Assembly: GCA_050015395.1 (NCBI GenBank)
Contig: JBEKBM010000019.1
Coordinates: forward strand, 1 to 60,265
Source of the DNA: Candidatus Bathyarchaeia archaeon
GTDB lineage: Archaea; Thermoproteota; Bathyarchaeia; Bathyarchaeales; Bathycorpusculaceae
Direction of reading: 5' to 3'
DNA: 60,265 nt
Positions within the stretch are counted from its first letter, which is position 1, and each line of letters opens with the position of its first letter. Under the pieces are notes generated by a model. It saw only the letters and a program-made list of their open reading frames with translations, was not told the origin of the DNA and did no database searches. Shown piece after piece: positions 6,248 to 29,349 of the stretch. The translations under genes and the position numbers were made by a program.

Positions 6248-7498
6248 TTATGGCCAAAGTCCTAGTGTTTTTATGGCATTAGCCACTCTTCCTACACCCA
6301 GCATTAACGCGCCCGTGCGCATGTCGCTCTCTTCCTTCTCCGCGATAGCGACTACGTCGTTGAATGCTTTGGTCATTTTGGCTTCAAGTTTCCTGTTGAC
6401 TTTTTCCAGTGGCCATTGCTCGCGGGTTAAGTTTTGTACCCATTCAAAGTAGCTTACGGTTACACCGCCAGCATTTGCGAGTATGTCTGGAATCAGACAG
6501 ATGTCTTTTTCGTATAATGCCTTGTCAGCTTCAGGTGTAGTTGGTCCGTTTGCTGCTTCAGCGACCATTTTTGCTTTTATTTTGTCGGCGTTGTTGCGGG
6601 TGATTTGGTTCTCTAGCGCTGCAGGAATAAGCACGTCGCAGGGCAATTCAAGCAGTTCCTCGTTGGTTATGTTTTTGCAGTCCTTGTAGTTCTGGACAGA
6701 GCGTGTTTTTTCTTTATGCACAAGAACATCCGGTGGGTTTAAGCCATCTGCGCAATAGATTCCTCCTGTGGAGTCGCTTACGGCTATTATTTTGCAGCCT
6801 ACTTCTTGCGCGGCCACTGCTGCATGGTAGCCGACGTTGCCGAAGCCTTGGATGGCCACGGTGGCGTTTTTTAGTTTTAGGCTGTTGTTTTCTGCCGATT
6901 GCTTTACGCAATGGATTACTCCTCTGCCCGTGGCTTCCGTTCTGCCCCATGAGCCTCCGATTTCAACGGGTTTTCCGGTGACGCTTTCGGGTATGCTGTA
7001 GCCTTTCATTTGGCTGTAGGTGTCCATTATCCAAGCCATGGTTTGCGCGTCAGTGTACATGTCTGGCGCAGGAATGTCACGGTGTGGTCCCAAATATTCG
7101 AAGATTAGACTGACGTATCTTCTTGTTAATCTTTCAAGCTCATGTTTGCTCATTTTTTTAGTGTCAACACAAACGCCGCCTTTTGCTCCACCAAATGGTA
7201 TGTCAGCGATGGCGCATTTCCAAGTCATCAACATTGCCAGCGCGGTAATTTCATCAAGGGTAATGTTTGGGTAGTAGCGGATTCCGCCTTTGAATGGTCC
7301 GCGTGCATCCCAATGTTGAACTCGGATGCCGTTGAATACGCCGACGCCGCCGTTATCCATTCGGATGTCGATGCTGACGCTGATGGAGCGTTTTGGCGAG
7401 CTGAGCATCTTATGCATCCCCGAATCCAACTGTAACTTTTTGCAAGCCAGTTTGAGCTGGGAAAGTGCGACGGTTAATGGTGTGTGTTCTTCAGCCAT
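6248..7498 (-). CDS. gdhA: Glutamate dehydrogenase (Glu/Leu/Phe/Val family)
   Basis: RGPFKGGIRY, FGGAKGG, DIPAPD, ATGRG, QGFGNVG, EAANGP, NAGGVTVSYFEWVQN; start taken at ATG 7498. Confidence 0.95.
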   Translation of the reverse strand: MAEEHTPLTVALSQLKLACKKLQLDSGMHKMLSSPKRSISVSIDIRMDNGGVGVFNGIRVQHWDARGPFKGGIRYYPNITLDEITALAMLMTWKCAIADIPFGGAKGGVCVDTKKMSKHELERLTRRYVSLIFEYLGPHRDIPAPDMYTDAQTMAWIMDTYSQMKGYSIPESVTGKPVEIGGSWGRTEATGRGVIHCVKQSAENNSLKLKNATVAIQGFGNVGYHAAVAAQEVGCKIIAVSDSTGGIYCADGLNPPDVLVHKEKTRSVQNYKDCKNITNEELLELPCDVLIPAALENQITRNNADKIKAKMVAEAANGPTTPEADKALYEKDICLIPDILANAGGVTVSYFEWVQNLTREQWPLEKVNRKLEAKMTKAFNDVVAIAEKEESDMRTGALMLGVGRVANAIKTLGLWP

Positions 7499-7753
7499 AA
7501 ATCGAGCCTTCTGCAATAACTGTTAATTATAAAATGGCTAGATAAGACTTGCCTTCGCCAGTTTTTTGTGTGTTTGGTTGATGCTTTTGTATACCGTCGT
7601 TTTGGCCTTTACCATTCAAGGGTCATCTTAGTGACTGTGACTGTTTAGCTCTGTCTTTTTAACTGTTAATTGTTGTGCGTGCAAAGCCTACCTACCCGGT
7701 CGAAAAATATATACGTTTTATCAGTACGTTTGTATATACGGAGACGCGGGCAT

Positions 7754-8092
7754 ATGGCTAAAGCGATTAAGTCGTTCAAGTTTAAGCCTCAAGTTTATGA
7801 GAGTTTCAAGCAGTTAGCATCCAAGAACGGTTACACTGTGACCGGTGCCTTTGAGAAGTTCATGGAGTCTGCTATTGATCACGGTCTTGTTTTTCCTTCA
7901 GCCGTAAAAAAGGAAAATGCTGAAGCTGAGGCTCGTATCATGCTGGCTTGGCTTAAAGAAGGCAAGTACTGGGTTAATCTTGGTGGCGGAGAAGAGACGA
8001 GCACTAGAGGTCGTCTTCTGCAGCTTTTGCCGAATGTTGAAAAGGCTGATTTGAGATTGGATATTGAAGAAACCTTGAAGAAGAAGCCTTAG
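7754..8092 (+). CDS. Small putative ribbon-helix-helix DNA-binding protein
   Basis: N-terminal KSFKFKPQVYESFKQLASKNGYTVTGAFEKFM fits a beta-helix-helix pattern; repeated motifs upstream; ATG 7754. Confidence 0.6.
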   Translation: MAKAIKSFKFKPQVYESFKQLASKNGYTVTGAFEKFMESAIDHGLVFPSAVKKENAEAEARIMLAWLKEGKYWVNLGGGEETSTRGRLLQLLPNVEKADLRLDIEETLKKKP

Positions 8093-8466: not shown

Positions 8467-8778
8467 TTACTTGCAGTACTTTGCTGCTTCTTCAATGTAG
8501 TTTTTGACCTCTTGATGTAATGCAGGCGAATAAAACTGAAGACGAATCTCCGCTTTCTGTCTTCCCTTGAAATGTGCGGTCAAGGTTTCGTCTTTTATTT
8601 CGGCTTTCTCAAGGTCGCGTAAAAGATACATTTCAGGGTCTTGCCTCTCCACGATGTTAAAGCGTGGGTTATGCGTCTCTTGTTGGATGATGAGGCGATG
8701 AGTGGTTAACCAGCCTACACCATTTGCCAACTTGTAGGATAAGATTGTCTTTTCTCCCGGAAAGCCGTCAAATTTCAT
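8467..8778 (-). CDS. Hypothetical protein, possible PH-like fold
   Basis: Clean ATG ORF; GE.IL....G.GWLTTHRLII resembles PH-like domain starts. Confidence 0.55.
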   Translation of the reverse strand: MKFDGFPGEKTILSYKLANGVGWLTTHRLIIQQETHNPRFNIVERQDPEMYLLRDLEKAEIKDETLTAHFKGRQKAEIRLQFYSPALHQEVKNYIEEAAKYCK

Positions 8779-9241: not shown

Positions 9242-9272
9242 TTGAGCGAGAGCACTTACGCTTTTCGTTCAA
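9242..9272 (+). promoter_or_regulatory. Conserved 5'-leader hairpin, copy 1 (TATA box TTTATAT at 9209-9215)
   Basis: TTGAGCGAGAGC-ACTTAC-GCTTTTCGTTCAA; homologous to 13394-13424. Confidence 0.75.
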
Positions 9273-9297
9273 ATAAAATTATAGGAAAAGAAAAAAC

Positions 9298-11940
9298 ATG
9301 AAATTTGCTAAAAACAAAACAACAATTTGCGCAATTACTATAATTACGATATTAGCTCTTAGTAGCTTCGCAGTTCTAGTACCAAAAGTTAACGCACAAG
9401 CAGCTGCAGGCAAACTAGATGTTCCAACTTGGTGCTTCATTAATGCTTTCCCAAGTCCCGTTGGCGTTGGTCAAACAATCAGCCTCTTTGCTTGGCTTGA
9501 CATTCAACCACCAACCGCGATGGGAGCATACGGTGACCGATGGTATAATCTAACTATAATCGAAACGAAGCCAGACGGCACCACAGTAACATTGGGACCC
9601 TACACGTCAGACCCCGTTGGCACGATTTTCACAACCGTCATTCCAGCAACAACAGGTAATTATACATTCAAATTTGTCTTCCCTGGACAACTTCTCGCAG
9701 GCAATAACTTAGAGCCAGTAGTGCAGCCGGTTGCTGCCTACCCTCAGATAGGCAACTATTACGAGCCCGCAACATCCACCCCAGTTACAGTCAACGTGCA
9801 ATCGACGCCTATTCCAACCGCACCAGCTTATCCGTTACCAACTCAATACTGGAGCAATCCGGTCAGTCAAAGTGGACACCAGAACTGGGCATATATAACT
9901 GGCGATTGGCTAGCTACCGGCGTGGCTGGCTCAAAAATCAATGACTACACACAACCGCCAACAACCGCCCATATCGCATGGACTATACCCTTAACTTACG
10001 GAGGCGTTGCAGGTCTGCCATCGGCTATTAGTACTGGTGGTGACAACTACTACACAGGTCTTACATATGAAGGACTGTTCTCCAATCCAATAATCATGGG
10101 TGGGCAACTCTACTACAACATCGGTAGGCCACCACAGTACGGCTTCGCTGACGTCAATTTACAGACTGGACAACAAGTCTGGTATCAAAACGGTACAGGT
10201 CCCCAGCAATCATTTATGGGCTATGGTTATCCGCAGCTTACTATGGGGCAGGAACTTGACTACGAATCACCTAATCAACACGGTACAGTCGAGTACCTCT
10301 GGAGCGTTTACACAGCCGCCAACGGATCGAACGTCTGGGCAATGTATGACCCAGTCACCGGCAATTGGATATGCAATCTCTGGAATGTGCCAGCAAGCTC
10401 AGAAATGTTCGGGGCCTCAATGATGATTACTGACCCAAGCGGTAGTTTCATAATCTACACCCCCGACTTCGCCAACAAAATCTTCAGCGTCTGGAACAGC
10501 ACCGCCACAATCCAAGATACATATCCTTTTATGGGAATGCAATATGGCAACTCATCAAACAGTTACTGGGAGTGGAGACCTCCAACGGGTGCACAAGTAG
10601 ACGCAACAGTCGGCACAACTAATTACGCTATCACTGGTAATCTACCTGCAAATGCAGCATCCGCAACACTTATGGGCATTGATACAGCAGACCAACTCGC
10701 CGTATACAGCACAGCCCCAGCAATGATAGGTATGGCAAGTTATCCTACACCCGATAGCTACACACAATTCGCCATCAGCACCAACCCCGCTACCATAGGC
10801 CAAGTGACGTGGTCTCGTACATACCCATGGCCAACAGGTAACGTAACCCTCGAATATGGTTGTCCCATAAGCAACGGCGTATTTACATTATTCGAAAAAG
10901 AACCAAGGCTTTGGATGGGCTTTAGCGCAACCACAGGAGCACAAATCTGGACATCAACAACACCTGAAGTTAGTAACCATCTATACTTGCAAGGCTACTC
11001 AGCATACACCTATGACGGCGTGTTCTACAGCTCCGACTCAATTGGCGAAGGCGGAAGCGTATACGCCTACAACGTTACGACTGGAGCGCTATTGTGGAGC
11101 TACACAGCGCCTTCTATGGGCTATACTGGCTACTGGGACAACATACCCACAACCGTCGGAGCTTTCGCATCAGGCAATATATACTGGAGTGGATCCGAAC
11201 ACAGCCCAGGACCAAACCTTGAACCCGGATTCATGTTAGGCGATATGAATGCAACAACCGGAGTACCAATCTGGAACATCACCTTCTGGGATGAAGGTAC
11301 TGGAACTGGCAATATCGGTGCAATTGCAGACGGCTACCTGGTAGCCTTAAACAGTTACGACATGCAAATCTACAGCTTCGGCATGGGACCAACCCAGACA
11401 ACAGTAGGAACAGATTGGAGTAATAGGGGACAAAACTTAGTGATACAAGGCTCAGTACTGGACATTTCTGCTGGCACTACGCAGTCTAATATAGCGGCGC
11501 GCTTTCCACAAGGTGTTGCAGCCGTTTCTGACGCAAGCATGACCCCATACATGGAATACGTGTACATGCAGAATCCTATCCCAGCAAACACTACCGGTGT
11601 ACTAGTTCAAGTAACCCTTATTGACCCGAACGGCAACACCATTAACCTACCCACTGTCACAAGCGACGCGAGCGGCCACTACGGCCTTGATTATAAGGTT
11701 CCTAATGTACCAGGAACGTACACAGCCATCGCTACATTCAGCGGAACTGACGCTTACTGGCCATCATACTCAGAAACCACCTTCCAAGTTGACCCCGCAC
11801 CTGCAGCTACTCCCGCACCAACAGCTACTCCCACATCTGTCGCTAACATGTACTTTGTTCCGATGAGTATTGGCATAATTGTTTTAATCATCATAGTCCT
11901 CGCCGTAGTAGTACTCTCGATGCTTAGGAAGCGACCATAA
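9298..11940 (+). CDS. Large membrane-anchored PQQ-like beta-propeller surface protein, paralogue 1
   Basis: Signal peptide, Ig-like N-terminus (P.PVGVGQT, KPDGT..LGPYTSDPVG), YA.N.TTG..LW blades, many NxT sequons, P/T linker, C-terminal TM helix + RKRP. Confidence 0.88.
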   Translation: MKFAKNKTTICAITIITILALSSFAVLVPKVNAQAAAGKLDVPTWCFINAFPSPVGVGQTISLFAWLDIQPPTAMGAYGDRWYNLTIIETKPDGTTVTLGPYTSDPVGTIFTTVIPATTGNYTFKFVFPGQLLAGNNLEPVVQPVAAYPQIGNYYEPATSTPVTVNVQSTPIPTAPAYPLPTQYWSNPVSQSGHQNWAYITGDWLATGVAGSKINDYTQPPTTAHIAWTIPLTYGGVAGLPSAISTGGDNYYTGLTYEGLFSNPIIMGGQLYYNIGRPPQYGFADVNLQTGQQVWYQNGTGPQQSFMGYGYPQLTMGQELDYESPNQHGTVEYLWSVYTAANGSNVWAMYDPVTGNWICNLWNVPASSEMFGASMMITDPSGSFIIYTPDFANKIFSVWNSTATIQDTYPFMGMQYGNSSNSYWEWRPPTGAQVDATVGTTNYAITGNLPANAASATLMGIDTADQLAVYSTAPAMIGMASYPTPDSYTQFAISTNPATIGQVTWSRTYPWPTGNVTLEYGCPISNGVFTLFEKEPRLWMGFSATTGAQIWTSTTPEVSNHLYLQGYSAYTYDGVFYSSDSIGEGGSVYAYNVTTGALLWSYTAPSMGYTGYWDNIPTTVGAFASGNIYWSGSEHSPGPNLEPGFMLGDMNATTGVPIWNITFWDEGTGTGNIGAIADGYLVALNSYDMQIYSFGMGPTQTTVGTDWSNRGQNLVIQGSVLDISAGTTQSNIAARFPQGVAAVSDASMTPYMEYVYMQNPIPANTTGVLVQVTLIDPNGNTINLPTVTSDASGHYGLDYKVPNVPGTYTAIATFSGTDAYWPSYSETTFQVDPAPAATPAPTATPTSVANMYFVPMSIGIIVLIIIVLAVVVLSMLRKRP

Positions 11941-11964
11941 AAAATGCTAAACAAAAAACATCAC

Positions 11965-12258
11965 TTTCCCCTTTTTTGGTCTTAAAAACCAATGGATAAA
12001 AGAATAAGGGCTGAGAAGGCTCTGGTTGAATTCACGATGGCGTATGTAGTTATCATCATTAGCATTTGTATTCTTTTTTCTCCTAAAAGTTGTTCCAGAG
12101 CCTCAGCAAACCCTAAATGCTCTATTGTCTTTTTTTTAGAAAATATGGCTTAGTCTTTCCAAGTGGCGCCGGGGGGGATTCGAACACCAATTTACTATTA
12201 AATGACCGCAAACAGTTTAGCTTCAAAAACTGCCCAAGGCGAAGAGCATTTTGATTTT
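11965..12258 (+). repeat. Direct repeat copy 1, including T-rich terminator and tRNA 3'-end fragment (12164-12185)
   Basis: Near-identical to 16021-16335 apart from a 19 bp indel and a few substitutions. Confidence 0.95.
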
Positions 12259-12474
12259 TCCTGTCGTTTGCTTTCTCAACAATCCACGGAGCAGTACTTA
12301 TCTCGCGACAATATATGACTCATAAGCTACAAAGGGGATGCTGAAATCAAGCAACAGGTAACAAATATCGCTGAGAAACATAACTTCGCAATGAAAGAAG
12401 AGAAAGGCCCAAATCTTTCCGCAAGTTTTATATTTGCCGTTACAATTTGGCTTCCCTATTTTTTTTGCAAAGTT

Positions 12475-13308
12475 TTATAAGGAAGTTGGCGACAAACAGC
12501 CTGCGCGCTTCGATGTTTGAGAGTCTGTCCACTGTTTTTCAAAGTATACTTTGGCTATCGCCGTTAGATGAGAGTTATTTGTCATTAAATAGGCGGCTTT
12601 AGAAAAATCGCTTGATTCCGACGTAATAATCCCGATTTTTTTCTCGTCCAAGATTACAAGTGGCACAATTGCTTGGTTAAACGAAACTCTTGCTTCAAAA
12701 AAAGGATTTATCATCGAATCTTCTAAATTGAACTGAAAGCTACTTCTTTCGGGCTTTCCTATAATCATTCTTATCTTAACTTCTTTTTTCAATGCTCCGT
12801 CTAATTCTTCCTTTGCTAACTCAAGATTTCTTTCTAAAGTAACTATGTCGATACTTGTCTTGCAATTAGAAAAATTCTCTTTTCGCCTTCTGGCGCGCGC
12901 AGATGCGTTGGGAACAAAAAAGGTTATTTCCTCTTCTGACTCAGTGCGTTTCATTTTGTTTGCTGCTTCACATCGTTCAAGCAACTGCTTTGCTGCTGCC
13001 TTAATTTTTATCTCCATGTCTGAAAATTCCTGCTGTTTCCGCTGAAGCATAATGGAAATAGCATCTGCTATTGGGATAGCTGAGTACTCATAAGGTGTCG
13101 CCACTATTTTTTCAATGATTCCAATGTCTAGTAGATCGTTAACCACTTGGTAAATGTGTTGACGTGCTAAATCTGTTCTTTTGGATAGGACTTTTATGGT
13201 CGCTCTTTCCGTCCGGGTGAGCGTGATGTAGACTCTGGCTTCAAGAGAAGAAAGCCCCATTTGTGTCAGTGCCTGCACGTCTTGGCTTGAAACCGTTAAA
13301 TCACTCAT
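12475..13308 (-). CDS. TrmB-family transcriptional regulator
   Basis: L..MGLSSLEARVYITL...IYQVVNDL...GIIEK....PYEY.A wHTH plus effector domain (VILDEKK...Y.MTNN..L..AKVYFEKQW); start taken at ATG 13308. Confidence 0.9.
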   Translation of the reverse strand: MSDLTVSSQDVQALTQMGLSSLEARVYITLTRTERATIKVLSKRTDLARQHIYQVVNDLLDIGIIEKIVATPYEYSAIPIADAISIMLQRKQQEFSDMEIKIKAAAKQLLERCEAANKMKRTESEEEITFFVPNASARARRRKENFSNCKTSIDIVTLERNLELAKEELDGALKKEVKIRMIIGKPERSSFQFNLEDSMINPFFEARVSFNQAIVPLVILDEKKIGIITSESSDFSKAAYLMTNNSHLTAIAKVYFEKQWTDSQTSKRAGCLSPTSL

Positions 13309-13335
13309 TAGAATACCTACGAAGATGATTATGCA

Positions 13336-13362
13336 TTGAACAGAACTCTGTTGTTCTTTCAA
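13336..13362. promoter_or_regulatory. Imperfect inverted repeat, candidate TrmB operator
   Basis: TTGAACAGAAC-TCTGTT-GTTCTTTCAA just upstream of TATA box TTTAAAA (13366-13372), between divergent genes. Confidence 0.5.
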
Positions 13363-13393
13363 GGATTTAAAACCTTTCATAAAGCATACTCTC

Positions 13394-13424
13394 TTGAGCG
13401 AGAGCATTTACGCTTCTTGCTCAA
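13394..13424 (+). promoter_or_regulatory. Conserved 5'-leader hairpin, copy 2
   Basis: TTGAGCGAGAGC-ATTTAC-GCTTCTTGCTCAA; differences from copy 1 keep pairing (G-U versus G-C). Confidence 0.75.
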
Positions 13425-13450
13425 TGCAAAATAAAATTGAGGAAAGAAAA

Positions 13451-15997
13451 ATGCAAATCAAAAAAACCAAAACACTTTCTAGTATCGCTTTGATTCTACT
13501 GTTAACTTTTTCTGTACTTATGGTAAGCATGCCGACCTCTAAAGCTCAAGGTATGCCTCTCACTAACATTCCTACCTACGCCTTCCTTACTGTTGAACCT
13601 AACCCTGTAGGGGTCAGTCAGACAGTGTCGGTTGGTTTTTGGCTTGATAAGGTCCCGCCAACAGCAGCGGGTCCATCTGGTGCTAGGTGGCAGGGTTTAA
13701 AAGTAACAATCACAAAGCCCGACGGAACCACCCAAATCATGGGGCCGTACACTTCCGATCCGGTCGGAATGTCAAACTTCAATTACGTGCCCGACGCGGT
13801 TGGCAACTATACTTTGCAGTGTAGCTTCCCTGGACAAAATGTAACTGGCATTGGGGCGGTCATTCCGGTGCCGATTAACGACTATTATGAGCCAAGCACA
13901 AGCTCGGTAGTAACACTTAGTGTACAGCAAAGCCCAATAGCGTCTTATCCGACGACTCCGCTTCCAACTGGTTACTGGCAGAGCCCCATTGACGCACAGA
14001 ACAGAGGATGGTACACGATATCAGGAAATTGGCTGGCACAAGGGACAGGAGGCCTGTTATTTGGACAGAGGGCGTACAATTCTACTGGGAATTTCAATGC
14101 TTACACCACAGCGCCTAATTCGGCTCACATAGAGTGGACGAAGTCAATAGCTATCGGCGGTCTCATGGGAGGCGAGTTTGGGGGTGGTGGCACTAGCGCC
14201 TACAATTGGGGGAACACATACACACCGATGTTTGTACCACCGGTAATACTGAATGGAGTACTCTACTACAATTCTCCTGTCGAGCCCAGAGAAGGATTCT
14301 ATGCCGTAGACCTACGCACCGGACAAACGCTATGGTATCAAAATAGTACTGGTCCGGTAACGATGCTTGGAGCAGTTGGCCTAAATGGTTATTATGGCTA
14401 CGCGGGTATAACACTGGGTCAAATATACAACTACATCTCACCCAACCTATATGGAGGCGACCCATACCTATGGTTTACTCAGGGCACTACATGGTACATG
14501 TATGACGCGAGCACAGGAAACTTGATACTGAGCATGGCGAACGCAACTAACCTTGGGAACCCAGAGACTCCAGGCACTGTTGTTGAGCGTCCGAACGGCG
14601 AGTTGGATGTTTATATGCTTAACGGATTCACAAACACGTTGTCTATGTGGAACTCGAGTCTGGCTATTCCAACGCTGGGAACAGAAAGCACGGCCGCTTG
14701 GTGTTGGAGGCCCCCCGTAGGAGCGACGCTTAACTGGCTAAACGGAATACAATGGACCGTAACAGCAGCCCCATATCCGGGACAAGCCATTTCTACGATT
14801 AGTTCTAATGTAATACTTGCTACTACAGGGAGCTTGTTCCTGCCGCAGAATTACCAAATGGAAATAGGTTACAGCGCAACAACAGGGCAACAGTTGTGGG
14901 TTCAAAACCGAACGACTCCTCCAGGGGCCACGTCCTTTAATCTCATGGGTCCTGCCGCTGACGGGGTCTACACTGAATTCCATGAAAGTACGATGGAATG
15001 GTACGGCTACAGCCTCGCTACAGGAGCACAAATATGGGGCCCAACTGTCCCCTACACCAGTGGTTGGGGTTTCTATGATAGCACTTCGGGTAGCGCTTAC
15101 GGCATACTTTACGCAACGGGCTACGACGGAACGGTGCACGCTTATAATATTACGTCAGGGCAGCACTTGTGGGACTGGTACGCTGGAAGCAGCGGGTACG
15201 AAACTGCCTATGGTACATGGCCTTTGTCCACTTTTGGCCCCATAACTATTGCCGACGGAAAGATCTACGTAGGCACGTGTCACGGTCTCGTTCCACCTAT
15301 GTTCAGAGGCGCACAGCTATATTGTCTCAACGCTACGACGGGAAAAGAACTATGGAGCATAGACCAATGGTGCGGAAATACTATAGCTATCGCAGACGGC
15401 TCCCTCGTAACACTCAACGGGTATGACAATCAAATATACTGCTTCGGACCGGGCCAAAGCGCCACTACAGTGACAACTTCACCTGGCATAAATACCAACA
15501 CTCAAGTATTGATAAAAGGCACCGTCACTGATCAATCGCCAGGCCAAACATGCCTAGGGATACCCGCCGCAGGCACACCCGCAATCTCAGACGCAAGCAT
15601 GACCCAATGGATGGAATACTTGTACATGCAGCAGCCAGAACCTATGAATGCAACGGGCGTTCCAGTAACGTTGACGGATATTGACCCGAACGGCAACACC
15701 TACACCATAGGCACAACCACAAGCAACATAGCAGGACAATACTCATACGCCTTCACTCCCACCGTACCCGGAACATACACAATCATTGCAACATTCGGCG
15801 GATCCAACTCGTACTACAGCTCAACAGCGCAAACTACCATGCTATGGAATACACCTGCAGCTGCTACTGCCGCACCTACAGCTACTCCGACATCTGTCGC
15901 TAACCTGTACTTTGTTCCTGCTGTCATTGCCATAATTGTTGTAATAATCATAGGCTTTGCTTTACTAGCAATCTTATCACTTAGAAAACGACCATAA
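13451..15997 (+). CDS. Large membrane-anchored PQQ-like beta-propeller surface protein, paralogue 2
   Basis: Start taken at ATG 13451 (MQIKKTK signal peptide); same architecture as 9298-11940, ending PTATPTSVANLYFVP...RKRP. Confidence 0.88.
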   Translation: MQIKKTKTLSSIALILLLTFSVLMVSMPTSKAQGMPLTNIPTYAFLTVEPNPVGVSQTVSVGFWLDKVPPTAAGPSGARWQGLKVTITKPDGTTQIMGPYTSDPVGMSNFNYVPDAVGNYTLQCSFPGQNVTGIGAVIPVPINDYYEPSTSSVVTLSVQQSPIASYPTTPLPTGYWQSPIDAQNRGWYTISGNWLAQGTGGLLFGQRAYNSTGNFNAYTTAPNSAHIEWTKSIAIGGLMGGEFGGGGTSAYNWGNTYTPMFVPPVILNGVLYYNSPVEPREGFYAVDLRTGQTLWYQNSTGPVTMLGAVGLNGYYGYAGITLGQIYNYISPNLYGGDPYLWFTQGTTWYMYDASTGNLILSMANATNLGNPETPGTVVERPNGELDVYMLNGFTNTLSMWNSSLAIPTLGTESTAAWCWRPPVGATLNWLNGIQWTVTAAPYPGQAISTISSNVILATTGSLFLPQNYQMEIGYSATTGQQLWVQNRTTPPGATSFNLMGPAADGVYTEFHESTMEWYGYSLATGAQIWGPTVPYTSGWGFYDSTSGSAYGILYATGYDGTVHAYNITSGQHLWDWYAGSSGYETAYGTWPLSTFGPITIADGKIYVGTCHGLVPPMFRGAQLYCLNATTGKELWSIDQWCGNTIAIADGSLVTLNGYDNQIYCFGPGQSATTVTTSPGINTNTQVLIKGTVTDQSPGQTCLGIPAAGTPAISDASMTQWMEYLYMQQPEPMNATGVPVTLTDIDPNGNTYTIGTTTSNIAGQYSYAFTPTVPGTYTIIATFGGSNSYYSSTAQTTMLWNTPAAATAAPTATPTSVANLYFVPAVIAIIVVIIIGFALLAILSLRKRP

Positions 15998-16020
15998 AAA
16001 CTCGCAACCCAAAAATCCAT

Positions 16021-16335
16021 TTTCCCCTTTTTTAGTCTTAAAAAGCAATGGAGAAGAGATAAGGGCTGAGAAGGCTCTGGTTGAATTCACGATGGCGTAT
16101 GTAGTTATCATCATTAGCATTTGTATTCTTTTTTCTCCTAAAAGTTGTTCCAGAGCCTCAGCAAACCCTAAATGCTCTAAGATGTCACCAATCACTCGTT
16201 GTCTTTTTTTTAGAAAACATGGCTTAGTCTTTCCAAGTGACGCCGGGAAGGGGGATTCGAACACCAATTTACTATTAAATGACCGCAAACAGTTTAGCTT
16301 CAAAAACTGCCCAAGGCGAAGAGCATTTTGATTTT
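16021..16335 (+). repeat. Direct repeat copy 2 with tRNA 3'-end fragment (16238-16262)
   Basis: Near-identical to 11965-12258. Confidence 0.95.
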
Positions 16336-16425
16336 CTTTTTGCCATTTGGTTGATCCTCAATCAGCATTCCGCTTCTCCTGTTTAGCTGGAATAGCATCT
16401 CTCTCTTGGGCTAACAAGGTTAGCA

Positions 16426-16563
16426 TTAGAATTTTTCGAGATATTCTTCAAACTGCTTTTTATCCCTCAAACACTGAGGGTAAACACAACTGAACGGGAG
16501 ATCTTTGGTGGGGCATAACTCATTGTATTTTTTTGCCGTCTGAGCCTGGGGCGTTTTTTCCAG
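16426..16563 (-). pseudogene. Degraded copy of the 3' end of the Cys-rich gene at 17489-17827
   Basis: Translates KYNELCPTKDLPFSCVYPQCLRDKKQFEEYLEKF* versus intact KYNESCATKDLPFSCVCPQCLMDRKQFEQCLEKF*; upstream part frameshifted or lost. Confidence 0.9.
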
Positions 16564-16654
16564 CATAATAAAGGTAATTCATTCCAGAAATGCACTAGCA
16601 TTTTCAAAGGGTTTCTTTTGTTTTAGCCGTTGGTATTAACTTGTCCTTATTCCG

Positions 16655-17089
16655 TTATAGGTCCTTCGGATGTACTCTTTGGATTAATTCTGTTTTGTCG
16701 TAATCTTTGTCTTCGCTGATTATTTTTTGTATCCCAAGTTCAAGCATGCTGGCAACATTTATTGCGTCTTTTGGGTGTTTGAGCGGAGTAATCTCCATGA
16801 TTTCCAAGGCGTGTTCAAAAACAACTCTGCTCATCTCAACCTTCTTGATCTTGCTCATTTTCATATAGTCGCGAGCCACGCGGATGGCAGTAGATGCGGA
16901 AGTGAGCTTGGACAAAATAAAAAGGGTCTCCTCTAGGGTTTCCAAGCTTGTTGCCGCATTTATTTCTCCCTTTGCAGCTTTGCCTATGACGTTTAGGCAT
17001 TCTTTGTGGTATGCTGCATTTTTGTCTGCGGCATGGATGAGCGTTGTGGAATCCAAGAAGTAAGTAGGTTTAGTTGTAATCAGATTCAA
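16655..17089 (-). CDS. vapC: VapC-like PIN-domain toxin
   Basis: YFLDSTTLI, TLEE, DAINVASML..GI.KIISEDKDYD. Confidence 0.92.
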   Translation of the reverse strand: MNLITTKPTYFLDSTTLIHAADKNAAYHKECLNVIGKAAKGEINAATSLETLEETLFILSKLTSASTAIRVARDYMKMSKIKKVEMSRVVFEHALEIMEITPLKHPKDAINVASMLELGIQKIISEDKDYDKTELIQRVHPKDL

Positions 17090-17101
17090 GCGTAAACCAG
17101 C

Positions 17102-17368
17102 TTATGTTTCGAGAAAATGCTTTAGTCGTTCTTCAGCAGTTTTCTTTTTCAGTTCTTCTGCGGATAACCCTATTGATATTTCTTTTGACAGTTCAGTTAG
17201 ATCCTGCAGTGGATCTTCAGAAACCTTGTGCAGGTGTATACTTATTTTATTGCCTACGGCAACTATTACGGCTTCGTCGCCTGTGTTCACTCCGTAGACT
17301 TCACGTAGTTCTTTTGGCAATACGATTCGCCCCTGCCTGCCAACTCTTACCTTGAAAAATGATGCCAA
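17102..17368 (-). CDS. vapB: AbrB/MazE/SpoVT-type antitoxin
   Basis: KVRVGRQGRIVLPKELREVYGV..GDE; directly upstream of the PIN gene; AGTGGCA repeats at 17399 and 17417 flank the TATA box. Confidence 0.9.
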   Translation of the reverse strand: MASFFKVRVGRQGRIVLPKELREVYGVNTGDEAVIVAVGNKISIHLHKVSEDPLQDLTELSKEISIGLSAEELKKKTAEERLKHFLET

Positions 17369-17488
17369 AGTAACATCTCACTGTCATTATTAAAACTAAG
17401 TGGCATATTTAAAATTAGTGGCACTCTGCTGTCCTTCAGTAAGCCGTCGTTTGCTACATATGGATGCGTAAAAACAGTCAAACAAACA

Positions 17489-17827
17489 TTAGAATTTCTC
17501 TAGACACTGTTCAAACTGCTTTCTGTCCATTAAACATTGAGGGCAAACACAACTGAATGGCAGATCTTTGGTGGCGCATGACTCGTTATATTTGCAGTCT
17601 GAGCATGGGAAGTCTTTTCCACAGCGCGTACAGCTTTGGAGAAATACGACTTCACTGTTTAAAATGCCGGCGATTGTGTCCATAAGCTTTTCAATATTAT
17701 TGCAGCTTTTAATGGAAAAGACGCCTTGCTCACGATTATAGTTCAAGCCTAAATGTATCAAGAGAATAAATTTTTCTTTTTCAACCCTCGGAAGCTTGAA
17801 CGCCTTCTTATTTAAAACTGCCACCAT
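17489..17827 (-). CDS. Cys-rich (Zn-binding) hypothetical protein downstream of rfcL
   Basis: CxxC, CxxC, C, CxCxxC motifs; GGAGG-like RBS. Confidence 0.8.
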   Translation of the reverse strand: MVAVLNKKAFKLPRVEKEKFILLIHLGLNYNREQGVFSIKSCNNIEKLMDTIAGILNSEVVFLQSCTRCGKDFPCSDCKYNESCATKDLPFSCVCPQCLMDRKQFEQCLEKF

Positions 17828-17842
17828 TTTCCGCTTCCTCCA

Positions 17843-19072
17843 CTAATACCTGTTCATTTTCGTTAGGAAATCAACTTCTTCAGGCGTGAATTTAAACCAA
17901 GAAGCTAGAGGGCTTGATTTTTGGTTTTGCAGTATGCTCTTGATGAATGGGACGAAATCATGTTTGGCTATTTCATGGGAAACATGGCATTGGGCTCCAA
18001 TTTTTCCGCAGATAGTGTCAAGCATTGTTCTTTTGCTTTTGGTCCAGAACAAAGTAATAATCCTGATAGGCGGCGAAATAAATTCAAAGGGCTTGTATGA
18101 TTTAGGCGCAACCGAGGCTGCTTTAGATAACGCGTTATAGAAGTACTTTAAAAGATGCCAGTGCTCAGTTCCGATCCTTCCTCGGAAAACATCAGCTTGA
18201 GAAACATAATCGTAGGCGGCAGCAAGCTCTGCTGGGTCAGTGTATCGTCTGGGGAGATTGTCGCTTACTGAAAGTAGAAAATCATCATAGTCAACGCTTG
18301 AGCGGCTAAGTAAACTTGATGCTTCCGCAATTGATTTTGCTGAGAAAAATCCTCTTAGTGTTTCGTCCATGCTTATGTCTTTGTTTCTTGAACTAAGCAT
18401 CATGGTGTCTTGAAGCGTGAGGACCTGGTTTTCTTCGCTTATGCTTTGCAGGTCGTTTATGGCTGACCGTACATCGCCTTTGCTGTTTTGGGCGATTCTC
18501 TCAAGCGCCTCAAACTCCGCTTTCACATGCTCAAGCAAACAAATCTTCTGCAATAATGCAATGATAAGCGGTATCCGGATTTGCTGGAAACGTATCAGTA
18601 AGCATACTTTCTTTAGCGGTCTTAGCTTGTCTATGTCAGGATCGTTTGCTGCCATTATAACTGGTACTCGGGAGTCTTCAACGATTTTTATTATGGCGCT
18701 TACTCCGCCTCTGTCCTCGTTGCCTGCGATGCCGTCAACCTCGTCGAGGAAGAGAAGGTTGCCTTTGCTTTCAGCTGAGAAAGTGTCTAAAGCAACAAAG
18801 GAAGTGGCTGGTTTAGCAATTTCATTGATCGCTTTTTCGGATCTTGTGTCGCTTGCGTTCATTTCAATAGTGATAAACCCAAACTCTTTTGCGGCAGCAT
18901 TGGCAAGTGCTGTTTTACCAACTCCAGGTGGTCCATAAAGTAAAACTGCCTTTTTACTTCGCCGCTTGCTTTTCAGCCACTCGATAAAGGCGGCTTTCGC
19001 TTCTTCGTTACCGATTATGTCTTCTATTTTTTTTGGGCGGTACTTTTCAACCCATAAAAGATCATTTCTCAA
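17843..19072 (-). CDS. rfcL: Replication factor C large subunit
   Basis: WVEKYRPK, GPPGVGKT, EMNASD.R, LDEVDG, GDVRSAINDLQ. Confidence 0.96.
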   Translation of the reverse strand: MRNDLLWVEKYRPKKIEDIIGNEEAKAAFIEWLKSKRRSKKAVLLYGPPGVGKTALANAAAKEFGFITIEMNASDTRSEKAINEIAKPATSFVALDTFSAESKGNLLFLDEVDGIAGNEDRGGVSAIIKIVEDSRVPVIMAANDPDIDKLRPLKKVCLLIRFQQIRIPLIIALLQKICLLEHVKAEFEALERIAQNSKGDVRSAINDLQSISEENQVLTLQDTMMLSSRNKDISMDETLRGFFSAKSIAEASSLLSRSSVDYDDFLLSVSDNLPRRYTDPAELAAAYDYVSQADVFRGRIGTEHWHLLKYFYNALSKAASVAPKSYKPFEFISPPIRIITLFWTKSKRTMLDTICGKIGAQCHVSHEIAKHDFVPFIKSILQNQKSSPLASWFKFTPEEVDFLTKMNRY

Positions 19073-27951: not shown

Positions 27952-29349
27952 TTGAAGAGAACATTAGCCATTGCATTCATTGCCATTTTGTGTTTATCAA
28001 TGTTCTCAGCGTATGCGCCAAAGGTGATAGCTCAACAGTCTTCCGCTGACTGGCCTATGTTCCTTAATGACTCAGCACATACAGGCGCCACAACAAACAC
28101 TGGACCAACGAAACCTGTTAAGCTGTGGAGCTACGTTGAAGGACATTTTGACGGTAGCGCTATCGGTTCTTCCGCCGCCATTGTTAACGGTGTAGTTTAT
28201 GTTGGGACAAATTGGAATAACAGCTTATATCCACTTTATAATAATGGCAATAGCGGCAACATTTACGCTTTTAACGCCTATACAGGCGCCAAAATATGGA
28301 ATTACTCAACCGATAGCGCTGTATATTCGTCTCCCGCTGTATCTGGAAACATGCTGTTTATCGGTGTAGATGATAATGTTTGTGCCTTTAACGCTTCAAC
28401 AGGCGTTAAAATATGGAGCTACGCAACTGGTGGTCAGATAAATTCTTCGCCTGATGTGGTCAACGGCGTAGTTTACATAGGCTCAAAGGATAACAATGCT
28501 TATGCCCTCAACGCTTCAACGGGCGCTAAAATATGGAACTACACAACTCGAGGCGCGGTGGAATCTTCACCTGCAGTTGTAAACGAGGTTGTTTATGTAG
28601 GCTCAGATGACGGCAACGTTTATGCTCTTAACGCTTTAACAGGCGCCAAAATTTGGAACTACACAACGAGCAACCAACCCCTCTGGTCATTTAGCAACCA
28701 AGTGACATCTTCGCCTGCTGTTAGCGGTGGCATTGTTTACGTAGGCTCAGTGGGCGGCAACGTTTATGCCCTCAACGCTTCAACAGGCGCTAAAATATGG
28801 AACTGCTTCACCAACCCTAGCTCCTTCGATGGAGGAGGCTACTTGCATGGAGTACAAGCTTCTCCCACAGTTACCAACGGAGTAGTTTACGTAGGCACAG
28901 TGGATGGCAACATGTATGCCCTCAACGCTTCAACTGGCAAGCAAATATGGGAAGACAACATTTTCCGCGTTTTGTCCTCTGCCGCTGTTACTGACGGGGT
29001 GGTTTATGTGGGAGGTTATGATGATGTTTATGCCCTTAACGCCACAACAGGGTCCCAAATATGGGATTTTCCTACTCAAAATCAGATAATCTCTTCGCCA
29101 GCTGTCTTTAATGGCGTCGTCTATATTGGGTCACAAGACGGTAATTTCTATGCAATTGGCAAACCTTCGCCTAACGTATTTATCATAGTCGGGGCGATAG
29201 CTGCCGTCGTAATTGTCGTTGCTGCAGTGGTTTTCTTAATGTTTCAAAAGAGATTGAAAACTAAGCCGATAAGCCCAGCACCTACACCGCAGAACTATAC
29301 TGCAGTTTCCTCTGTTCAACCACTCAAAAGTTATCGGAATAAAGATTAA
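27952..29349 (+). CDS. PQQ-repeat (BamB-like) beta-propeller surface protein
   Basis: WPMF.ND.AHTG start; ~8 repeats of SSPAV.NGVVYVGS.DGNVYALNASTGAKIW; signal peptide and C-terminal TM. Confidence 0.92.
   Translation: MKRTLAIAFIAILCLSMFSAYAPKVIAQQSSADWPMFLNDSAHTGATTNTGPTKPVKLWSYVEGHFDGSAIGSSAAIVNGVVYVGTNWNNSLYPLYNNGNSGNIYAFNAYTGAKIWNYSTDSAVYSSPAVSGNMLFIGVDDNVCAFNASTGVKIWSYATGGQINSSPDVVNGVVYIGSKDNNAYALNASTGAKIWNYTTRGAVESSPAVVNEVVYVGSDDGNVYALNALTGAKIWNYTTSNQPLWSFSNQVTSSPAVSGGIVYVGSVGGNVYALNASTGAKIWNCFTNPSSFDGGGYLHGVQASPTVTNGVVYVGTVDGNMYALNASTGKQIWEDNIFRVLSSAAVTDGVVYVGGYDDVYALNATTGSQIWDFPTQNQIISSPAVFNGVVYIGSQDGNFYAIGKPSPNVFIIVGAIAAVVIVVAAVVFLMFQKRLKTKPISPAPTPQNYTAVSSVQPLKSYRNKD

Follow-up and report, generated by a model that had tools for sequence, protein, structure and literature searches.

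Probable turnover of regulator-plus-surface-gene units at a variable site in Bathyarchaeia, with a conserved bulge-helix-bulge-like module behind the genes

Introduction

Bathyarchaeia are abundant and uncultured archaea, and to our knowledge almost nothing is known of their cell surface or of their encounters with viruses and substrates. The stretch of DNA analysed here, called the window, is an entire contig (C19, JBEKBM010000019.1; 60,265 nt) of a Candidatus Bathyarchaeia archaeon genome (G000, GCA_050015395.1; 2.59 Mb in 42 contigs), and it occurs nearly verbatim in 23 peat and wetland metagenome runs. It holds two genes for large predicted surface proteins, PQQ1 and PQQ2, with the gene of a TrmB-family regulator between them, and each surface gene is followed by a non-coding repeat. 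An earlier note, made from the sequence of this DNA, had pointed out that the genes are strongly diverged in their middles and the non-coding DNA behind them nearly identical, and had proposed that variable surface genes and their regulator are added, excised or swapped by recombination at conserved flanks. How did two such different genes come to share their downstream DNA, and do regulator and gene indeed come and go as a unit?

The comparisons described below lead us to regard unit turnover through general homologous recombination at shared unit ends as a reasonably probable explanation. The unit in question comprises a short remnant termed X, the TrmB gene and PQQ2 (Table 1). The surface genes are indeed diverged copies that share a leader hairpin and a C-terminal anchor: the two proteins are 40% identical, a 55-nt block surrounding the hairpin is 73% identical between the copies, and a 59-nt block coding for the anchor (...SVAN(M/L)YFVP...LRKRP) is 92% identical.

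A site with changing content

Nineteen relatives, all of them metagenome-assembled genomes (G004 being 71% complete), were anchored on the RFC gene, and the interval from the glutamate dehydrogenase (GDH) gene to the conserved 112-aa gene was compared. Proteins flanking the site are 72-98% identical among these relatives. Between them lies an empty gap of 205-271 bp in six genomes (G013, G010, G002, G011, G012, G001), a gap of 0.8-3.9 kb with other genes only in eight (G031, G038, G003, G051, G041, G046, G014, G039), and genes of the surface-protein family in four, namely G004 (at least three), G048 (two), G016 (one) and G050 (one, inverted); the content of the gap in G042 is unclear. In G048 the order is PQQ-element-TrmB-PQQ-element, where the element is the recurrent portion of the repeat found behind family genes. 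The site has what marks a flexible island, the same conserved flanks with differing content in close relatives, and the proposal that surface-gene units differ between close relatives at this locus is borne out.

The family genes that occupy the site elsewhere are not counterparts of those in the window. Those of G004, G048 and G016 belong to one subfamily, with mutual identities of 51-66% and identities of 33-43% to PQQ1 and PQQ2, and their best matches in G000 reach 35-47%. Within the closest relatives, the best match of PQQ2 is 55% identical and that of PQQ1 42-44%; the closest relative of PQQ1 is a paralogue in its own genome, on C1 (71% aa identity). Moreover, the paralogues are mosaics: in windows of 30 codons the nucleotide identity of PQQ1 to the C1 gene ranges from 67 to 99%, and that of PQQ2 to a C23 gene from 42 to 90%.

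Units differ at other places too. In G003, PQQ-element-TrmB-PQQ-element stands between two genes that are adjacent on contig C36 of G000, and in G031 (L094) a TrmB gene, a PQQ2-like gene and an element are present where contig C7 of G000 has none. At C7:20718-20800 there is a lone tRNA trailer with a tRNA 3' fragment, 86-89% identical to repeat positions 209-286, which may be either a site that no unit occupies or a scar left by one since lost. G004 has a right-flank duplication of its own, which extends into the 112-aa gene and encloses a family gene with an Lrp-type regulator. Read from their N-termini, the regulators paired with the site family genes of G004 and G048 are Lrp/AsnC-like instead of TrmB (L037:1609-2580, L037:9798-10823, L078:9069-10055), and thus the regulator type varies between units.

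A contig without the unit

Metagenome contigs were searched with a junction probe consisting of the copy-1 terminator and the copy-2 flank, 290-320 nt apart, and one contig was found, Ga0187858_10045452 (L113), of 3193 nt. It consists of window positions 10997-12003, one repeat and positions 16336-18243, and is thus without X, TrmB, PQQ2 and one repeat copy, 4077 nt in total. The junction that the earlier note had predicted, about 12260 joined to about 16336, exists in this one contig through a hybrid repeat, which has the terminator variants of copy 1 together with the 19-nt segment, both substitutions and the 3-nt insertion of copy 2. The flanks of L113 differ from the window at 1/944 and 5/1908 positions, plus one extra C (99.7-99.9% identical), and these six substitutions and one indel of its own indicate a near-identical but distinct strain. 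The contig would fit a crossover within the 121-nt identical core of the two repeats; a pre-insertion state would look alike.

Four points weigh against this reading of the locus. L113 could be an assembly chimera, as the shared core is 121 nt long and phasing across it needs words of at least about 126 nt. Logan unitigs of four peat and wetland runs (X3, X4, X9, X7) break at repeats and give no reliable deletion joint, the candidates all having sides shorter than 30 nt; the joints from near 11943 to 16011/16018 and from 12034 to 16148, with sides of 22-25 nt and inserted letters, fit other paralogues and are evidence neither way. The similar depth of unit and flanks in the four unitig runs indicates that the occupied form dominates there. 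Finally, rapid divergence in place cannot be fully separated from replacement, since no orthologue exceeds 55% even in those genomes that have flanking genes about 96% identical.

Of the other explanations, the one that survives best, unlikely as we hold it to be, is that PQQ1 and PQQ2 are old neighbours whose downstream DNA was recently homogenised by local gene conversion, with no insertion or deletion at all and L113 a chimera. It would accommodate the mere 4 kb between the copies, the identity that climbs gradually from the anchor-coding ends into the repeat, the order PQQ-element-TrmB-PQQ-element shared by G048 and G003, and the equal unitig depth. However, the identical tract crosses DNA that does not belong to the element, the native flank of the 112-aa gene, and ends sharply at 12258 with no homology beyond; because a conversion tract requires homology on both sides, this speaks against conversion. 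Further, the element pairs of G003 and G048 are not homogenised, and L113 with its private differences represents another strain.

The composite repeats

Counted from the stop codon, the repeat copies span 11940-12258 (319 nt) and 15996-16335 (340 nt). Their near-identity and the 19-nt indel reported earlier are real; the length of about 290-315 bp given then was too short. The near-identical tract covers 12004-12258 (255 nt) in copy 1 and 16059-16335 (277 nt) in copy 2, with two substitutions, a 3-nt indel and the 19-nt indel, whose segment is present at 16180-16198 in copy 2 and missing from copy 1. By blocks, 121 nt and 86 nt are identical, 49 nt are 96% identical and the first 64 nt 78%. 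Past 12258/16335 there is no similarity, so that the right edge is sharp, whereas the left edge grades into paralogue-level similarity. The repeat is a composite, made up of an oligo-T terminator, a bulge-helix-bulge module of about 100 nt, a tRNA trailer with a tRNA 3' fragment, and the native flank of the 112-aa gene.

In G031, whose site lacks family genes, as well as in G004 and G016, repeat positions 257-340 and the 90 nt that follow them lie beside the 112-aa gene, as its native flank. The unit is bracketed by direct repeats, as had been claimed, and the right-flank duplications in G000 and G004 are independent. The remnant X is 93% identical over 207 nt to L027:14876-15082 of G003, which lies there between the gene of a 103-aa protein and a PQQ leader hairpin. 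A VapBC pair has entered the same neighbourhood between 107-nt direct repeats (16424-16530 and 17487-17593, 84% identical) that duplicate the end of the 112-aa gene. This unrelated pair has the same direct-repeat footprint, which speaks for general homologous recombination and against a dedicated cassette system. To judge from its sequence, the locus is a patchwork of unit pieces.

The tRNA part of the composite deserves separate consideration. Copy-2 positions ~199-290 are the trailer and the 3' part of an opposite-strand tRNA gene, cut in the T loop. On contig C46 of G004, an intact tRNA-Ala(UGC) in convergent orientation (L040:8891-8965) comes after the element and has the same trailer, and many element copies of G003 and G004 also carry trailer and acceptor strand. 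The native-flank duplicate overlaps the tRNA-like fragment by ~11 nt and G031 keeps part of the fragment, and the border between the two is therefore not sharp. The tRNA and Rfam scans of the repeat returned no match. A retroelement primer-binding site (plus-strand TGG with the complement of a tRNA end) was considered and rejected, because in a genomic tRNA gene the acceptor end, discriminator base and trailer together give the apparent CCA, as the intact tRNA-Ala of L040 shows.

Could the fragment instead be the old attachment site of a tRNA-targeting integrative element whose integrase has since been lost? It lies where the island ends on the right, G031 has kept it too, and a paralogous fragment stands at the border of the C7 unit site. 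We consider such an origin quite improbable, for of an intact tRNA, a 3' direct repeat and an integrase inside, the locus offers the 3' fragment only; ARAGORN found no intact tRNA in any of 20 syntenic loci, and the window has no integrase. As the fragment is accompanied by a convergent tRNA's trailer, and that tRNA is intact beside the element in G004:C46, it looks like co-duplicated DNA from the neighbourhood.

A conserved module on the RNA strand

The note had suggested tabulating the genes next to BLASTN matches of the repeat, and this revealed that the repeat is not limited to PQQ1 and PQQ2 and recurs after other family genes. Relatives of the repeat elsewhere in G000 lie directly 3' of the stop codon of the C10 paralogue, on C8 with no family gene before it, on C32 and, as a short piece, on C7; the C8 copy is 153 nt from a contig end. 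Eight family genes of G000 have their 3' end on the contig, and a BLAST-detectable element follows three of them (both genes of C19 and that of C10); the C23 gene has a diverged version recognised by eye, and the genes on C1, C6, C27 and C24 lack one. For the closed genome G003, two tables were compared by hand: of 14 BLAST places, 12 immediately follow a family gene, and the element is present behind 12 of the 16 family genes.

The family itself counts 10-30 members per genome, with 13-33 family matches in each of five close relatives. In G000 its members are spread over ten contigs, and four genes (C22, C33, C27, C24) are cut by contig ends; the family breaks assemblies, and the true gene number is for that reason larger than counted here. 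With BLAST the repeat was located in 13 of 18 genomes of the same genus and in none of 12 genomes from other families of the order. A strict two-arm pattern was matched by 20 genomes among the 251 of the order, and these belong to a single family; 19 of 97 genomes of that family have it, distributed over four genera (g1, 14/37; g14, 1/4; g17, 3/11; g35, 1/1), it is absent from all 154 genomes of the other eleven families, and the reversed pattern never matches. A scan of all species genomes gave at least 121 stretches, and 78 of the 80 listed are titled Bathyarchaeota or Bathyarchaeia. L137 and L192, titled Methanoregulaceae and Nanoarchaeia, carry perfect element copies and are most likely mis-binned Bathyarchaeia DNA. 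Viral contigs contained no element match. A literature search on Bathyarchaeia (bulge-helix-bulge motifs, integrons, surface families) found no publication on the element or the surface family.

What recurs at these places has a constant order. Behind the stop codon come an oligo-T, a short purine stretch, GG, GCUG, a 3-nt bulge (AGA/AGU), AGGCUCUGG, a variable interior of 51-84 nt, CCAGAGCCU, CAGC, AAA and CC. On 48 copies RNAalifold predicted a 4-bp helix, a 3-nt bulge and a 9-bp helix. Among 47 distinct copies, all four pairs of the GCUG/CAGC helix form in 46, the 3' bulge reads AAA in 45, and the 9-bp inner helix has at least eight of its nine pairs in 45. Across 134 distinct copies from many species, the 5' bulge is AGA in 80 and AGU in 54, and the first inner pair, for which the search pattern admitted all four combinations, is A-U in 71, G-C in 51, G-U in 11 and A-C in one. 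In these copies the first inner pair shows covariation, and since G-U is tolerated and A-C is not, the pairing appears to be that of an RNA read from the strand of the surface gene.

A canonical bulge-helix-bulge, as the available text of PMC7714728 defines it, is a 4-bp helix between two 3-nt bulges on opposite strands, with flanking helices h and h'. The predicted geometry of the module is that of this definition, with the outer helix as its weak point: it consists mostly of 2-3 G-C pairs, at least two contiguous pairs are found in 112/134 copies, and a shift control does nearly as well (320 vs 331 of 402). Two tRNA_int_endo (splicing-endonuclease) genes are present on contig C4 of G000, in the regions of C4:10840-11076 and C4:65742-65996. 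Whether the module would be a genuine substrate of the splicing endonuclease we judge to be an even question.

Neither strand has a conserved reading frame. The possibility of a small minus-strand protein was considered and rejected: among 39 copies with the conserved arm located, ATG frames across the arm occur in all three frames (14, 7 and 4) and in 15 copies there is none; frames of the plus strand vary likewise. Conservation of the module is probably explained by selection on a function, given that it is family-wide, extends over at least four genera and shows RNA-type covariation on the sense strand. The idea that conserved non-coding DNA marks a recombination site was in this respect mistaken, the conserved part being a selected, RNA-like module.

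A dedicated integron-type cassette system, with the inverted repeat and its extra-helical bases as recombinase site and units excised and inserted as circles, is in our view very unlikely. There is an imperfect inverted repeat with a variable centre behind each gene, tandem arrays exist, and integrons are reported in Archaea in the available text of 10.1101/2022.02.06.479319. However, no tyrosine recombinase (PF00589) was matched in the window, the five matches in G000 being on C8 (two), C4, C12 and C34; copies are scattered across many loci, and units have their own regulators and promoters. No circular form was seen, though no probe aimed at one was run. The L113 crossover and the duplications of G000 and G004 reach beyond the inverted repeat into local flank, the VapBC pair has its footprint without an element at the borders, and 11 G-U pairs against a single A-C fit pairing of sense-strand RNA. 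Of the cassette-exchange proposal, the turnover of units is likely, as it fits the relatives, the flank duplications, the mosaics and L113, and the dedicated system is not supported.

That the repeat pair is an artefact of the G000 assembly, which the four family genes cut by contig ends might suggest, is scarcely credible, since unitigs of four other runs match unique segments (11458-12027, 12435-13912, 13910-15568, 16306-17741) without difference, the copies differ by indels and substitutions, and G004 has the same duplicated-flank layout.

The module interior and the start regions of sister genes

Read as its reverse complement, the interior gives a ribosome-binding site, a spacer and AUG. 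Its form is genus-specific, with AGGAGAAAAGAA..AAAUGCAAAUG in g1, AGGAGAGAGAAAAUGAAAAC in g17 and AUAGGAGAAAGAGAAUGAAAAAU in g35, and the arrangement CAU-N3-16-CUCC is found in 102/134 interiors vs 5/134 shuffled ones. Family genes begin with AUGCAAA in three of eight cases in G000, and AUGAA(A/G/C) stands at the first candidate start of six fetched family ORFs of g17. Fuzzy searching of G000 for the sense form turned up 11 matches; three of these are elements read in antisense, and one is the genuine start region of the C23 paralogue. As a property of these sequences the interior's anti-start-region character holds, and antisense action may follow from it. In a duplex-energy test, the copy-2 interior paired with eight start regions of the family no better than with 975 control ORFs (fraction of controls as low or lower, 0.11-0.98); the controls used the best of many candidate starts, so that the test was biased against the antisense idea and is evidence neither way.

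Genes and neighbouring features

The features of the locus are collected in Table 1.

Table 1. Features of the variable site and its surroundings, in window coordinates.
Feature	Position	Strand	Description	Basis
GDH gene and conserved flank	6248-7625	-	left border of variable site	
5' leader hairpin of PQQ1	9242-9272	+	31 nt, UUGAGCGA-N15-UCGUUCAA	
PQQ1	9298-11940	+	880 aa, predicted surface protein	ORF, Pfam
PQQ1 terminator region	11941-12003	+	oligo-T 11968-11977; 78% identical to 15997-16058	
Bulge-helix-bulge module, copy 1 (predicted)	12008-12112	+	outer GG/CC, 69-nt interior	
Parts of module copy 1	12010-12013 with 12104-12107; 12014-12016; 12108-12110; 12017-12025 with 12095-12103		GCUG/CAGC; AGA; AAA; 9-bp helix	
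tRNA trailer and 3' fragment, copy 1	12125-12185	-	acceptor 3' strand and part of T arm at 12165-12185, cut in T loop	
Native-flank duplicate of 112-aa gene, copy 1	12175-12258	+	repeat positions 257-340	
X	12259-12474	+	remnant of upstream region of another family gene	
TrmB-family regulator	12475-13407	-	310 aa; start probably M34 at 13308	
5' leader hairpin of PQQ2	13394-13424	+	31 nt	
PQQ2	13451-15997 (alternative start 13394)	+	848 aa, predicted surface protein	ORF, Pfam
Bulge-helix-bulge module, copy 2 (predicted)	16063-16167	+	identical to copy 1	
Copy-2 right part	16180-16335	+	19 nt, trailer, tRNA 3' fragment (16239-16262, minus strand), native flank	
Native spacer and displaced 3' fragment of 112-aa gene	16336-16566	-	fragment 16426-16566	
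VapC (PIN) and VapB (AbrB/MazE-like) pair	16655-17368	-	insertion in 3' end of 112-aa gene	
112-aa conserved gene	17489-17827	-	right border of variable site	
RFC large subunit	17843-19072		next after 112-aa gene	

PQQ1 has a predicted layout of a signal-like N-terminus, a PQQ-type propeller, an Ig-like part and a C-terminal hydrophobic anchor ending in RKRP; Pfam PQQ_2 matches both PQQ1 (E 1.1e-6) and PQQ2 (E 1.2e-15). The C-termini of the two gave no NCBIfam match, at E up to 0.01, to archaeosortase-type sorting signals (PGF-CTERM and relatives). The leader-hairpin motif also precedes PQQ-family genes of G038 and G003. PF01978 places the regulator in the TrmB family (E 2.9e-14; 53.1 bits against a cut-off of 25.6); its C-terminal Regulator_TrmB domain is under the cut-off (18.6 vs 22.2), and its NCBIfam equivalog scores are far under theirs. 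Paralogues of this regulator adjoin family genes on C23, C10, C1 and C32.

Among the remaining reading frames, one of 140 aa (7670-8092, +) lies within the variable interval, belongs to no known family and has paralogues on C25 (72%), C1 (58%) and C7 (50-57%). Another of 103 aa (8467-8778, -) has no Pfam or NCBIfam match and six further copies in G000 (C29, C15, C12, C17, C35, C4; 60-87% aa identity); as it is also found upstream of family genes of G003 (L027, L030, L035), it may belong to some units. A 465-aa frame (27952-29349, +), a shorter propeller outside the family units, has a weak PQQ-repeat match to PQQ2 (26% over 205 aa). G004 is without a VapBC insert at the corresponding place, and G016 (L011) has a VapBC pair, 64-69% identical, right behind another element copy.

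Comparison with known systems

In the account that we favour, the X-TrmB-PQQ2 unit would have been added, and could be lost again, by ordinary homologous recombination between shared composite 3' flanks. The conserved unit ends (the anchor-coding end, terminator and module) would serve as portable homology, and crossovers at these ends would add, delete or replace whole regulator-plus-gene units, while selection on RNA function would keep the module. Further, the splicing endonuclease may cut the module at both bulges and release an RNA of about 100 nt, whose interior would be antisense to a ribosome-binding site and start codon. A joint, two-layered counterpart of antigenic variation, in which the excised and perhaps circular RNA silences sister genes and the same module provides the homology for unit swaps between strains, is a speculative and on balance unlikely extension.

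Among known systems, the cell-wall island of Haloquadratum walsbyi comes close, with its diversity attributed to homologous recombination and mobile elements and virus evasion proposed as the driver, according to the available text of PMC4535781. Both islands have a fixed site, lineage-dependent content and surface proteins as cargo (glycoproteins in Haloquadratum). Unlike what that text describes, the cargo here is a single paralogous family of 10-30 genes per genome over many loci, the units have conserved 5' and 3' non-coding ends and often their own TrmB or Lrp-type regulator, and one single-unit indel variant has been seen. The VARTIG proteins of Thermococcales, as far as described in the accessible part of PMC8416519, are likewise large, hypervariable archaeal Ig-domain proteins, diversified through inter-genome recombination; there the C-terminal Ig domain and downstream genes vary, whereas here the middle varies, both ends are conserved and an RNA-like module follows the gene. 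Conserved protein ends, a variable middle and mosaic paralogues also recall Msp2 of Anaplasma, a gene-conversion antigen family (PMC2789410, in the portion available); unlike the Msp2 cassettes described there, every copy here is an entire gene with a start region of its own, and no single expression site with silent cassettes was seen.

The array-like arrangement invites comparison with the attC sites of integrons, which in the available text of 10.1101/2022.02.06.479319 also form an imperfect inverted repeat with a variable centre after each of several tandem genes. In contrast to that description, here there is no integrase and no attI, the units have promoters and regulators, the arms are near-invariant across genera and the observed junctions lie outside the inverted repeat. 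As for the module, splicing-endonuclease substrates other than tRNA and rRNA include the intron in the 5' UTR of HVO_1309 and that in the cbf5 mRNA, both given in the available text of PMC7714728. The module resembles them in its predicted 4-bp helix between opposite 3-nt bulges, its potentially excisable interior and its mRNA context; unlike these introns as described there, the candidate is multi-copy, lies behind the stop codon and oligo-T of surface genes, and would have an interior antisense to a translation start.

Concluding remarks

The locus offers a concrete, testable case of archaeal surface variation, in which the genes have no recognisable orthologues even in sister species but have ends with conserved DNA. 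A presence/absence variant the size of one unit appears to exist in at least one population. Moreover, a candidate for a splicing-endonuclease substrate that is neither tRNA nor rRNA is here placed in a defined biological setting, behind the surface-protein genes of an archaeal family.

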